A stretch of 61,744 nt of DNA, the filler included, from Collodictyon triciliatum (taxonomy: Eukaryota), in NCBI GenBank assembly GCA_043381765.1. It is 3 parts of 3 records of this genome, joined end to end, with 100 filler letters (N's around TTAATTAATTAA, not from the genome) between each part and the next. Parts side by side here need not be neighbours in the genome. Positions count along the whole stretch, not along the records: positions 1 to 22,468 come from JBHJMP010001149.1; positions 22,569 to 44,840 come from JBHJMP010001155.1; 1 more part is not named here. One strand, given 5' to 3'. The translations under genes and the position numbers were made by a program. The notes under the pieces are model-generated. The model was given only the letters and a program-made list of their open reading frames with translations, had not been told where the DNA came from and made no database searches. Positions 463 through 32,100 of this stretch are shown here, piece after piece (positions within the stretch are counted from its first letter, which is position 1; each line of letters begins with the position of its first letter).

Positions 463-3400
463 GTTTGGGTCAATGAAGGGAAAGCTCCGTAAAGTAGAAG
501 AAAAGGTTAAAGTTGCCTATGGGAAGAAAGGTCTGCTATCTTAATCGAATATCGCATGCGATGTTCTCTACCACTCCGAGTACTATTAAGAAGACGTGAT
601 TTCATGTGTTTGTGACATAATTTATTTACAAACATTCAAATTTAAATATTTTACAGATCCCTCAACTGGTCTATTTATCCCAACAAGTGCTTTTGTTGAA
701 ATTCCGGTATCTTAATGTTTTTTTTTTTATTTTATTTATGAAACTCCTCGCTACACTTTGAATCGAATAAAGGAAAAAAAAATTTTATTTATGAAACTCT
801 TTGATGAATGTATTAACGAAAAGTTGGAATGGATGTTATTTCCGTCAACTATAGGATTAAAGAAAACCGAAAACTGCTATCATGACCGAATCCTTTGCAA
901 AAGAAAAAAATTAGTAGAGCACGAACTAAGCACATTTTCTCGACCAGGTGCACATCAAAATATGTCGCTCCATTCTGGATGTCACACAGAAGAATATCAA
1001 TTTTGGTAGCTTGTCCGTGCATGAAACTCGTCAAAAAAACTTGACAATAATAAATCTGTCCGAGGTCATTTATGCCGCATTACATGAAATACATATTATG
1101 CCCCCTGCTATGACATTTTTTTTTTTAAACTCAAAAAAAAATAATCTACCAGGTACCTCTTTTATACCGCATAAAAAAATCAGGGTCGATCCTTTCGGAA
1201 TGTATCCAATTTGTATCACATCACATTGGTGTGTGTCGTCCATATGAAACAAAGGTTTATTTTATTTTATTTTATTTTTTTTTACATAGCTACTTTTCAC
1301 TTCAGTTTTTTTATATTGAAATACATGAAGTGTCATGTTTAATTTTATTTAATCATTTATATTTAGGAAATTCCGTTCATTTTTCAACCTATATTCGAGG
1401 GAAAATTTCAGGAGACCTTTTACGTTCAAAATATGTTGGACTCATCAAATGATAAGCTTATCACGATAAAGGTACATAAAAACTTTATGGCACTTGCGAT
1501 AGAATGAACAGAAAAATTAGCATTCCTCTAGTTTGCTACTATAAATACTCACCCATGCTCCATGGCTGACTATTCAGCCCGTAAGATAGTATATCATTTT
1601 TTATTTTTGAAATCTGTCACATAGGCGCAACTATTAAAGCCGAAAGTTTTCACCGTTCAATCAGATGAAATTGACTTTGGGGACTGTATATTAGGGGATT
1701 ACTCGAATCTGAAGAAAATTACTATTTCAAATAATAGCAAGAGAAAACGGTTGTTCGAAATGTTTCCAATTCTGGATGACCAAAGGTATTGTACTCGATG
1801 ATTCAAAAGATTCTGTAATTCATAATCAATCAGTGTATTATACGATATTCAGGCCGCACTAAACAAGAGCAATAGAAAGAGACAAACAAAAATACTCAAG
1901 TATTACTACGTACCTATCTCAAAAATCAATTTAAATAAACCAAATTAACAAAACAAAAAAAAAATTAACAAACAGATATTCTGAAATTAACCAGCATTTG
2001 AGATTTGAAGTTGAACGAGGCAGTTCAGTCGGTTCACTTTCGATTGATATAGAAGAGGAGCTCGAAAAACTGATGAAAAAGAAACGAATATACGAAAGGA
2101 AAGGGAAAAAAGAAAAGCTGAAAGAGGTATGTTGAATTCAATTTTGATTTTATTGATATTGTTTCTCCGTAGCTTATGTCTGACTTATTAACCTGTTACA
2201 ATCAGTGTAAAGTAAGTATACCATATTCTCTCTCATATAAATTATTTCGTTCACCAGTTGAACCAGAAGATCGAGCTTCTGAAGCAGGGCATTATTCCTC
2301 CCTCCAATCCAGTTTGCCTTTTAAGCCGCCCATATATATTAAATTAACTGTTAATTCGTTTCAAATATAATGTATAATTATCTTATATCTCACATCTTGC
2401 ACTTTCACCCATTTGAAACTATTTTCATAAATACTGTTGATGGACAGGATGAAGGTTCTAGCTCAGCATCCGATGTATCTGAGGATGAGGGTCCTAAACA
2501 AGTATTTTCTTATTACCTCTGTTCCGTAAAAACGAAGAACAATATTATCATTTTTTTGAAAAAGATAAAAATGAAGACAAAGATAAAAGTTTTTTTTTNN
2601 NNNNNNNNNNNNNNNNNNNNNNNNNNNNNNNNNNNNNNNNNNNNNNNNNNNNNNNNNNNNNNNNNNNNNNNNNNNNNNNNNNNNNNNNNNNNNNNNNNNN
2701 NNNNNNNNNNNNNNNNNNNNNNNNNNNNNNNNNNNNNNNNNNNNNNNNNNNNNNNNNNNNNNNNNNNNNNNNNNNNNNNNNNNNNNNNNNNNNNNNNNNN
2801 NNNNNNNNNNNNNNNNNNNNNNNNNNNNNNNNNNNNNNNNNNNNNNNNNNNNNNNNNNNNNNNNNNNNNNNNNNNNNNNNNNNNNNNNNNNNNNNNNNNN
2901 NNNNNNNNNNNNNNNNNNNNNNNNNNNNNNNNNNNNNNNNNNNNNNNNNNNNNNNNNNNNNNNNNNNNNNNNNNNNNNNNNNNNNNNNNNNNNNNNNNNN
3001 NNNNNNNNNNNNNNNNNNNNNNNNNNNNNNNNNNNNNNNNNNNNNNNNNNNNNNNNNNNNNNNNNNNNNNNNNNNNNNNNNNNNNNNNNNNNNNNNNNNN
3101 NNNNNNNNNNNNNNNNNNNNNNNNNNNNNNNNNNNNNNNNNNNNNNNNNNNNNNNNNNNNNNNNNNNNNNNAAAAAAAAAAAACAACTTACAACAATAAT
3201 TTTTAATAAATGATGCTTCAGTAATGTTTCTTGTGTATGCATATTAGAAAAATTTCTGTACACGAACACAAAAATTTGGATTTTGTTAAAGAAGTTTGCT
3301 ATAAAGCGAGAGTTTTTGCTGATCGACAAGGCCTCATGGTGCTTAAATGAATTATTATCGGTTTTTTTGTTAAAAAATATATTCTGCCTCACATAATCTT

Positions 3401-29100: not shown

Positions 29101-32100
29101 TAACAAAAATAAGAGTTTCAAAAAATGAGTAACAATAATTACTCCAAGGATGGCCCATTCGAAATTACTTGATGAGATTGGAGATGAGCCAAACTAACCG
29201 CAGAGCATGAGTTGCATTGAACAGAAACTTAATCGATGATGATTAATTTCTTCATTTAGTTGTTCCATTTTAGATCCATCATTATGTTACATTTGCCTCT
29301 ATTTGACTTTATTATCCATAAATCCACATTTTTACATAAAAATAAAGATATGCTTGATCTTTGTGTTAAACATAAATAACTGACCTGGAACGACTACATT
29401 CTGATTGCAATAGAGGCGGTCACATATTTGCATAATTTGTTCTTGATACCCCTATACAAAGTTACAATTCAGGTCTATAGATTCCCTAATTTTTCTCTTT
29501 ATCATCTTTCTCATAATTAAAATAAATTTAAATAATTAAACATATATCCCAGAGAGGGATTTTATTAGAATATGTAATTTTTTTTAATACTCTCAACACT
29601 CTGGCGATAAAATCCTTCCTTTGGAGATTTTGTACTAGCGACTGTGTTTAAAGATATTAGCCAGGGGAAATAATAAGAAACATGAATTAAAATAAAAATA
29701 GTGTGTATAATTATCACCTGAATAAGAGACTTTTGACTCGTAGTCAAAATAGAAGGATTCTTCATCATATCTGTCATCAACTTCGGAGCATTTCCAAGAG
29801 CGGTCTTTAAGGAGAAAAACAAATAAATTTTGATGTAAAAAACTTTTTCAACTATTAAGTAAATAATCGAATAATAGTTAGAAATATGGAACCCTCGCTA
29901 CACTTTGAATCGAATAAAGGAAAAAATTAGAAATATGGAAAATTCATTAAAAAAAAAATGGGCTCTTGTCTGGAACTTTACCAGAACATTATATTCATCC
30001 AACTTCTTCACATAATCGACATGAGGATTAACTAGTTTCAGCTGTTTCTCTGTTGAAAATCCTCTGATGAAAACTTTGTGCCCTATGTTACTCATTTATG
30101 AGGTAAAAATGAAAGATAAATAGAAAAAATTACTTGAACCATTCTCTTAAAAAACAGCTCATATAAAATGAGAATTTTGAGAAAGTGACCTCATACCATG
30201 AAGTAAGTCGTGCATTATCTTTTTCAAATCAAGGAGCATGGGAGGAGCGTAGCGAGGACCATAAATTTGAATTGGGTGAGGGCGGTTCGTTTTGCGAGCA
30301 ACGATTGACACTACCAATGCCTTGTGCTCCGGAAGAAGCTTATATCCATCACTGTAAGGTCCGTAAATTAGTCACAAAGTAGTATTTAATTTCATTCATA
30401 ACCGGATGGTGTTATTCCTTTTCAATAAGCATCTTTCTTAAATGTAACAAAAAAATGGTATAGTTACATTATTTTGTTGGGAGAGAATGACGACAAAATG
30501 TCAAATAATTTTGGAATGTTAGGGTCAACAGAGCTATGGTAAGAGGATAAATCTTGAAGCTTCGTTACGATAGAATCCTGTAAGTTTTTCTTCAGTATGC
30601 CTATTTTTTTATTTTTAGGAACAGAAAAACGCAGTTAAAGGTCTACCTAAGTGATAGCTTTTCCAAAAAATAATAATACTTTCAGTGAATTCAATATTTT
30701 TAATATGCTAATAATATGATTTAGCTATAGAAACAATTAAAATAGAATAATAATTGTGCGCTGATACTTGGTATCACTTGTTGTGTCTGGAACAGAAGAA
30801 GAAAAAATTTCTCGAGAAACAGTAACACTGCAACAACAGATTCGTTGGAGTGCACTGCCGCTTCATAGTACATCCACATTGCAGAGTGCATAAAGTCTTC
30901 AACTTTCAAAGGTATTTGCAGAGGATGCCCATGTAGGAACAGGTATTCGCACAGGTAGACTTAATAATTCAACAAAATGAGTATATTATAGACTATGACA
31001 TTAAATTCTATGAGTTAATAAATCTCCTTATGAATCGTTTTTCCCCTTTATTCGATTCAGAGTTCCTTATGTATAATACAAGGGGAATTGAGCATTTAAT
31101 GAGAGAAATGTTTCCAAACAATACATTTTTTCTCCCGAAATTCCAGCCATTGCTCCTTGGATAGCGATTTCTAATCGTCGTGGTTTTCATGGTGATATTA
31201 TATGAGGCAAAAAAAAAAAAAACGTATACTTTTGGAATAAACTGTATCATACACTAATATTACATATACATACCATGTTACAAATATTATCACTACAAAC
31301 CTGGCTAATACCTTCCAATATAAAGTTTAAGGGCATTCCATTTACATAAGCTATGTAAACAAGCATTTCCAAGAGATATTTGCTAGTTTCCGATGTCCAG
31401 AGCTAACAGAAAACGATGGTCCATCAATTATTTTTGTTTTAATTAGAACTATATTTTATAAGCACTTTGAATCGAATAAAGAGAAAAAATTTAGAAAAAT
31501 GTTTTTGGCACTCCAATTTTTCAATGATAAATAAATAAAAAAAAAAAGTGATTTCTTAATTGATATACTTTTGGAGATAGCTTTGATGCCCAGTAAACAA
31601 GCCACAAATTTGCGTATCTTGGGTCCCTCAAGCAAGACTCCATGATATGATAAATTGCACACGAGTAATTTACATCATTATCTTCTTTAATTCCAGTGAG
31701 CACTTGATCCAATAAAGCTGAAAGAAACTCAAAAGTGGCTAACTAGTAATTTGTGAAAAAAAAAAGAGAAAAAAAGATTGAAGTGGCGAGAAATAATATA
31801 AATCATTATAGAACGAACAAATGTATGATAGCACTGGAATTGAAACATAAATTACTTGAATCTCAGGGTATGTTTCCATTAAAAGTCTTGAAATCCATAC
31901 AATAGGCTTTGCATTGAATATTTGGTCGGGAAACGATGTAAGAAGATGGCATCTTCTTTGAAAATAAGTTTTCTCAATAATTGTTTCGAAATTCCAAACC
32001 GGAGAGAAGCCACTTGTCGTTGGGCTGAATTATTAAAATATTATGTTCCTCTAATACGCATTTACCTCAAATTTTTGGACTCAAGAAATCATTTTTAAAA

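Follow-up and report, generated by a model that had tools for sequence, protein, structure and literature searches.

Short A-tailed insertions in Collodictyon triciliatum DNA as probable extreme 5'-truncated copies of a LINE

The closest described systems for very short A-tailed insertions are 5'-truncated copies of long interspersed elements (LINEs, non-LTR retrotransposons) such as L1, and short interspersed elements (SINEs). For L1, two papers describe how incomplete reverse transcription truncates copies and how microhomology guides the joining of their 5' ends (PMC2881922, PMC2912911). An L1 mapping protocol gives a detection floor of 150 bp (PMC6407172), and Platy-1, of ~100 bp, is named as the shortest reported primate SINE (PMC4864456). 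Here, we analyzed a 61,744-nt stretch of DNA from Collodictyon triciliatum (the window), which contains six A-tailed insertions flanked by direct repeats. An earlier note on this DNA, made from the sequence alone, had described them as a separate tiny family of retroposed RNA, inserted through target-primed reverse transcription (TPRT) by non-LTR machinery. The TPRT part of that description is supported by the A tails, target-site duplications (TSDs) of 8–19 nt, the series of 5' ends and the two orientations. The notion of a separate family was not upheld, as the 28-nt unit forms the end of a LINE's 3' untranslated region (UTR; 93 nt), which follows a zf-RVT open reading frame (ORF). With a probability of about 0.8, we consider the six insertions to be extreme 5'-truncated copies of this poly(A)-tailed, endonuclease-type LINE, consisting of the last 18–28 nt of its 3' UTR and a short A tail. 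An apparent new class, the 30-nt "micro-SINE", would thereby become a known one, that of 5'-truncated LINE insertions.

Six insertions and their flanking duplications

The whole window was searched with the 17-mer CTTTGAATCGAATAAAG, and six matches were found at ≤2 mismatches against 0.04 expected; none of 100 shuffles reached six. The matches start at 756 (+), 15170 (-), 21819 (+), 29903 (+), 31046 (-) and 31465 (+), with 0, 2, 1, 0, 1 and 0 mismatches, respectively, and all copies were found where the earlier note had placed them. Their coordinates, and those of a possible seventh copy, are as follows.

729..799, plus strand: copy 1; 5' TSD 729-746 (ATTTTATTTATGAAACTC), insert 747-781, 3' TSD 782-799
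15145..15203, minus strand: copy 2; 5' TSD 15203-15187 (AACATGTGTACAGAGTC), insert 15186-15162, 3' TSD 15161-15145
21800..21859, plus strand: copy 3; perfect 12-nt TSD 21800-21811 / 21841-21852, LINE-only part 21819-21836 followed by A4
29878..29940, plus strand: copy 4; 5' TSD 29878-29891 (TTAGAAATATGGAA), insert 29892-29926, 3' TSD 29927-29940
31025..31071, minus strand: copy 5; TSD CATAAGGA at 31071-31064 / 31032-31025, insert 31063-31038, 5-nt spacer 31037-31033
31443..31505, plus strand: copy 6; degenerate TSD 31443-31457 / 31491-31505 (12/15), insert 31463-31489
15054..15074, minus strand: possible seventh, decayed copy (uncertain); AATCAAACAAAGG followed by A8, no clear TSD

The inserts measure 25–35 nt including the A tail, of which 18–28 nt are derived from the LINE. 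The 3' terminus is near-constant in all six copies, reading ...AATAAAG(G) followed by A4–A9 (9, 5–7, 4, 6, 5 and 6 nt in copies 1–6), and AATAAA lies 2 nt ahead of the A tail in the shared unit. The tail adjoins the 3' TSD in five of the six copies, with the 5-nt spacer between them in copy 5. The 5' ends vary: counted back from ...AAAGG, identity with the LINE extends over 28, 18, 18 (24–25), 28, 19–20 and 20 nt in copies 1–6. Both orientations occur, copies 1, 3, 4 and 6 being on the plus strand and copies 2 and 5 on the minus strand. The constant A-tailed 3' end, varying 5' end and dual orientation reported earlier were thus all reproduced.

Copy 1 consists of 28 nt of the LINE 3' end, without mismatch to the terminus of the parent contig described below, and an A tail of ~8–9 nt within a perfect 18-nt TSD. 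In copy 4, one extra C precedes 28 nt of the LINE end and A6, and the TSD is a perfect 14 nt. These two copies are considered young, because they have no substitutions and perfect TSDs. Copy 2 has 18 nt of the LINE end with two substitutions and an extra A/G before the A tail, in a perfect 17-nt TSD. Copy 5 (19–20 nt of the LINE end with one substitution, GGGG and A5, 8-nt TSD) and copy 6 (20 nt with one substitution and A6, preceded by 5 unassigned nt at 31458-31462) are considered old, because they are decayed. The old copies have diverged together with their TSDs, and the mixed ages proposed in the earlier note are borne out. A DNA contig of sequencing run X1 covers 31338-31488, in the region of copy 6, with 0 differences. 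When the parent contig was compared with the window by blastn, the possible seventh copy gave a 21-nt match at 90% identity (E = 0.059); it was also met in the fuzzy search.

The 5' junction of copy 3 retains a trace of how it may have been joined. Its identity to the LINE covers 18 nt, or 24–25 nt if two mismatches (transitions) are allowed, and its TSD can be extended to 17/19 nt (21800-21818 / 21841-21859). The CGCTACA in the 3' TSD copy equals the CGCTACA of the LINE just 5' of the break, giving 7 nt of GC-rich microhomology within AT-rich DNA. This is the signature left when truncated LINE cDNA is attached at its 5' end by way of microhomology. The overlap is 1 nt in copy 1 and 0–2 nt at the other junctions. 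We also observed TTTG directly after the TSD in copies 1 and 2 (...CTC/TTTG and ...GTC/TTTG; 782-803 and 15145-15141), which could reflect a second-nick preference or coincidence.

The flanking repeats were evaluated against random placements. When the two 45-nt flanks of each copy were compared, the longest exact repeats in copies 1–6 measured 18, 17, 12, 14, 8 and 6 nt, so the four perfect and two degenerate repeats noted before (8 nt with a spacer in copy 5, 12/15 in copy 6) were confirmed. When 4,885 placements were drawn at random from the same window, P(≥12) was 0.045 and P(≥16) was 0.024. The tail of this null distribution stems from microsatellites, whereas the repeats flanking the inserts are complex and abut the insert. 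Four of six copies with a repeat of ≥12 nt abutting the insert are far beyond chance.

A motif-blind scan of the whole window looked for A-ended inserts between direct repeats of ≥11 nt, whatever their sequence. It returned 14 candidates, four of which are the LINE-tail copies with inserts of 25–35 nt; the other 10 are spans of 516–6066 nt with repeats of 11–15 nt and were taken as chance. At this repeat length, no second type of A-tailed, TSD-flanked short insert was detected in the window. A search of the window for poly(A)-only inserts with flanking TSDs yielded tandem repeats only. The GC content around the insertion sites is 28–40% against a window median of 36%. The six copies are confined to the first, AT-rich half of the window, and the GC-richer, gene-dense second half contains none. 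In three of these six sites, a small sample, the upstream flank has a T-rich end and the TSD starts with A.

Parent element and its link to the organism

Metagenome contigs were scanned with the same 17-mer, and 116 matching stretches were obtained, which by our own estimate is roughly the chance number for a 17-mer in such a collection. In 115 of them the 17-mer alone was common and the flanks were unrelated, so these were discarded as chance. The remaining stretch, L020 (1,157 nt), is the only one with the whole extended motif and more of the upstream sequence. Its minus strand shows, in order, a zf-RVT ORF, a stop codon, a 93-nt 3' UTR, A10 and an AT-rich flank. The ORF matches zf-RVT (PF13966, "zinc-binding in reverse transcriptase") with E = 1.5e-7 and 32.4 bits against a cutoff of 27.5. 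The UTR terminates in ...TATGGCATAACCTCGCTACACTTTGAATCGAATAAAGG / ...CTTTGTATGGCATAACCTCGCTACACTTTGAATCGAATAAAGG directly before A10, and its last 28 nt recur in copies 1 and 4 at 100% identity.

An HMMER search with the L020 ORF against 1.84 billion representative proteins gave 14 matches. All four long relatives (1226–1275 aa; 29–38% identity near their C-termini) have Exo_endo_phos and RVT_1, and three of the four have zf-RVT; as judged from these domains, the layout is that of ORF2 of an apurinic/apyrimidinic (AP) endonuclease-type LINE. The short matches, at 59–98% identity, are further fragments of the L020 LINE family. The L020 ORF is split by a frameshift, which is read through in P0140, an intact close relative from the 90% cluster of P0121, itself 98% identical to the L020 ORF. 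Longer proteins homologous to this ORF were also sought by a word-index search, but its 403 candidates included none, and no member of the clusters from the HMMER matches carried an informative name.

Contigs of four sequencing runs were aligned to window part 22569-32000, which contains copies 4–6; each run covered a share of ≤0.13 of the stretch. Contigs of runs X2 and X3 carry spliced minus-strand exons of the window, with CT..AC ends at the joints and ~1–2% differing letters in the listed pieces, and on these grounds both runs come from this organism or a close relative. The summed depth jumps in the bin of copy 4 to 166 (X2), 133 (X3) and 19.6 (X1). Contigs that match 29893-29926 and continue into unrelated sequence on both sides numbered 7 in X1, 8 in X2 and 7 in X3. 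The consensus of these loose ends just 5' of the match terminates in ...TATGGCATAA in all three runs, and in X2 it reaches ...CTTTGTATGGCATAA, which equals the L020 UTR. Because the consensus equals this UTR, most of the other copies or transcripts in these samples carry the unit as part of a longer stretch of the LINE UTR; across the three runs, most contigs with the motif extend ≥10 nt further into it. Longer 5' extensions are likewise present in L020, and the UTR consensus in X2 and X3 connects the LINE with this organism or one of its close relatives.

Fifteen joints were listed from the aligned contigs, and none of them skips an insert; locus-specific coverage of copy 4 is ambiguous, and we give it no weight either way. 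A joint in X3 from 29926 to 31204, with 7 letters between, lands beside an A14 run and was taken as spurious.

Mechanism and alternative explanations

The following course of events would account for the insertions. The LINE endonuclease would nick AT-rich target DNA, and the freed 3' end of the target would prime on the poly(A) tail of the LINE RNA, with the LINE's own proteins acting in cis on this RNA. The lack of other A-tailed, TSD-flanked short inserts in the window fits such a cis-preference. Reverse transcription would then halt, or its template end, after ~20–30 nt. After a second nick 8–19 nt away, the short cDNA would be joined to the upstream target end, presumably with the use of microhomology at least once, and fill-in would yield the TSD. 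Candidate causes of the shortness are low processivity of the reverse transcriptase (RT) on the 3' UTR, early second-strand nicking or repair, cleaved template RNA, and purifying selection or survivorship, in which only tiny inserts would be tolerated in gene-rich DNA.

Several observations weigh against this account. All six copies are ≤28 nt, far from the broad length spread usual for LINEs, and no longer LINE piece was found in the window: blastn of L020 matched only its last ≤37 nt, at the six loci and the doubtful 15054-15074. A tblastn search of the LINE ORF against the window gave nothing below E 0.6. Of the 137 window ORFs of ≥85 aa, 99 were scanned for domains, frames overlapping clear genes being left out, and no RT or endonuclease domain was found in those 99. 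L020 is a metagenome contig whose tie to the organism runs only through the UTR consensus in the exon-bearing runs, and it does not reach as far as the RT and endonuclease domains, which are assigned from relatives at ~30% identity. Finally, copies 1 and 4 break at the identical base, and the retained length is 18 nt in copy 2 as well as in copy 3, which counts against truncation because a defined short template would give the same pattern.

Such a template is the only serious rival. In this explanation, which we regard as unlikely, a dedicated micro-retroposon, i.e., a poly(A)+ RNA of ~28 nt (and ~18–20 nt) comprising the LINE 3' tip only, would be mobilized by LINE proteins; it might derive from the LINE transcript by slicing or decay, or be a "SINE" that consists of a tail only. 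A related and similarly improbable proposal is that most of what the LINE machinery inserts in this lineage is ultra-short and copied from such a defined template, for example a 3' product that is left when the LINE transcript decays or is sliced under small-RNA guidance and that stays bound by RT in cis. The shared 5' boundary of copies 1 and 4 at -28, the clustering of the other four at -18 to -20, the similar size of all six and the lack of any intermediate or long copy in the window speak for a short template. However, with six copies over ~20 break positions, shared ends are expected about half the time by chance (our own estimate), and longer copies do exist, as the contigs reaching further into the UTR show. 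Moreover, 28 nt cannot hold an internal promoter of RNA polymerase III, no tRNA or Rfam family overlaps the copies, and no significant structure is predicted for the L020 UTR (z = -0.24, with 83 of 200 shuffles folding equally well). Were this rival true, the element would be the smallest retroposed unit known, and a density of ~1 copy per 5–10 kb of AT-rich DNA would scale to thousands of A-tailed, AATAAA-bearing scars unseen by annotation.

Two further explanations appear very improbable. Capture at DNA breaks leaves no TSDs and takes up arbitrary internal fragments. The perfect 12–18-nt TSDs abutting the insert in four of the six copies, and the A tail and start from the exact 3' terminus of the element in every insert, therefore argue against an endonuclease-independent process in which fragments of LINE cDNA or RNA are captured while double-strand breaks are repaired, even though very short inserts and microhomology are typical of that process and retrotransposon sequences captured at breaks are described in PMC4516963. 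The AATAAA ahead of the A tail, placed as at an mRNA end, would suit truncated retrocopies of cellular mRNA 3' ends (tips of processed pseudogenes), and an assembly, adapter or vector artifact was considered alongside these. Against both, the unit lies in the UTR behind the zf-RVT ORF, and the old copies have decayed in step with their TSDs. An adapter or vector origin, raised in the earlier note as a possible refutation, is excluded by the different flanks in independent DNA and RNA runs and in the metagenome contig, the continuation into the UTR, and the best plasmid match of the motif, which was not significant (E = 0.7). A spliced-leader or other small-RNA origin was dropped, since the unit lies at a 3' end before poly(A) and behind the LINE ORF.

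Genomic context and comparison with known systems

The earlier note had placed all copies in introns, which was upheld only in part by the three copies that could be positioned with respect to genes. Copy 3 lies between colinear, consecutive glycoside hydrolase family 31 (GH31) exon fragments on the minus strand, which match positions 120–147 (21930-22061) and 153–181 (21578-21787) of the Gal_mutarotas_2 profile; it is thus intronic and antisense. Copy 4, flanked by one spliced block that ends near 29790 and another that starts at 30237, is probably intronic. Copy 5 did not follow the prediction: it lies inside block 30767-31136, which is spanned without gaps by an RNA contig of X2, is spliced to 30237-30599 and has no ORF in any of the three frames examined. 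This copy is in a transcribed, spliced, non-coding block, in the sense orientation, and is an example of how sense copies bring AATAAA signals into transcribed DNA and host transcripts. The inserts are otherwise most likely neutral scars.

The transcription units around these copies and the other features of the window are listed below.

17847-22061, minus strand: GH31 gene with many short exons (colinear Gal_mutarotas_2, Glyco_hydro_31_2nd and Glyco_hydro_31_3rd)
23138-31136, minus strand: multi-exon transcript from X2 and X3 RNA contigs, with at least 14 GT..AG introns of 57–338 nt; no Pfam match in its ORFs
38652-39683: RPS2, nearly intronless and GC-rich, with a (CA)n tract in the frame upstream of the coding region; best named matches (75–77%) in Blastocladiomycota, chytrids and plants, best PDB match to plant ribosomes
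42645-44218, plus strand: ribonucleotide reductase small subunit (RNR2) in two exons; best matches 72–79% identical, many of Bacteroidota type, and no near-identical protein in a collection of 5.8 billion, in which the organism and its near relatives thus seem not to be represented
42652-42733, minus strand: tRNA-Ser (anticodon AGA), just upstream of or overlapping the frame of the first RNR2 exon
53549-54802, plus strand: NME5 / radial-spoke-like gene with a nucleoside-diphosphate-kinase exon and, after it, an exon with a Dpy-30 motif; its presence implies that the organism has a flagellated stage
58570-61743, minus strand: open frame of ≥1,058 aa that continues beyond the end of the window, with acidic ~25-aa repeats (...TEEAVTEQATEEPKVDEANAEETK...) and no Pfam family
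1-250: tandem (AAAAATGAAC)n array at the window start
2599-3171, 22469-22568, 44841-44940 and 48633-49037: runs of N

There are also paired 44-N runs 12 nt apart, and the window is regarded as a scaffolded draft because of its several N gaps. An isochore-like contrast was observed as well: positions 1-36000 have 24–39% GC and long-intron genes, and 36000-61744 reach 38–55% GC and contain RPS2, nearly without introns and GC-rich, among other genes.

Standard repeat annotation may plausibly overlook inserts of this kind. The six LINE-derived pieces in the 61.7 kb all fall within 18–28 nt, an unusual length spectrum, and combine clean TSDs with one clear microhomology junction. If the whole genome is alike, LINE activity in compact, AT-rich genomes would be badly underestimated by repeat masking, and the copies would form a natural collection of abortive TPRT events, useful for studies of 5' attachment.

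Compared with SINEs that have LINE-derived tails, the insertions are likewise short, non-coding, A-tailed, TSD-flanked and dependent on LINE proteins, and the unit itself is a LINE 3' tail. Unlike these SINEs, they have no head or promoter part and no constant 5' end: among the six window copies, the -28 end occurs in two and the other four are shorter, and copies of >28 nt exist in other contigs. ARAGORN and Rfam searches of the window gave no tRNA or Rfam match at the copies, the tRNA-Ser at 42652-42733 being their only hit. Processed pseudogenes likewise carry poly(A) and TSDs and arise when LINE machinery acts on the 3' end of an RNA, but the template here is the LINE's own 3' UTR (in cis) and not a host mRNA.

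The closest likeness is to the 5' truncations of poly(A) LINEs of the AP-endonuclease type (L1-like), with which the copies share the 3' terminus of an element followed by an A tail, variable TSDs, variable 5' ends, both orientations and 5' microhomology. The parent ORF ends in zf-RVT, as in the relatives with endonuclease, RT and zf-RVT, the RT of the parent itself lying off the contig. The copies differ in retaining only 18–28 nt, far below the sizes usually catalogued, and a limited, narrow literature search found no description of a LINE family consisting mostly of copies of <30–40 nt. Nevertheless, 5'-truncated LINE insertions are a well-known class, and only their uniform shortness is unusual here.

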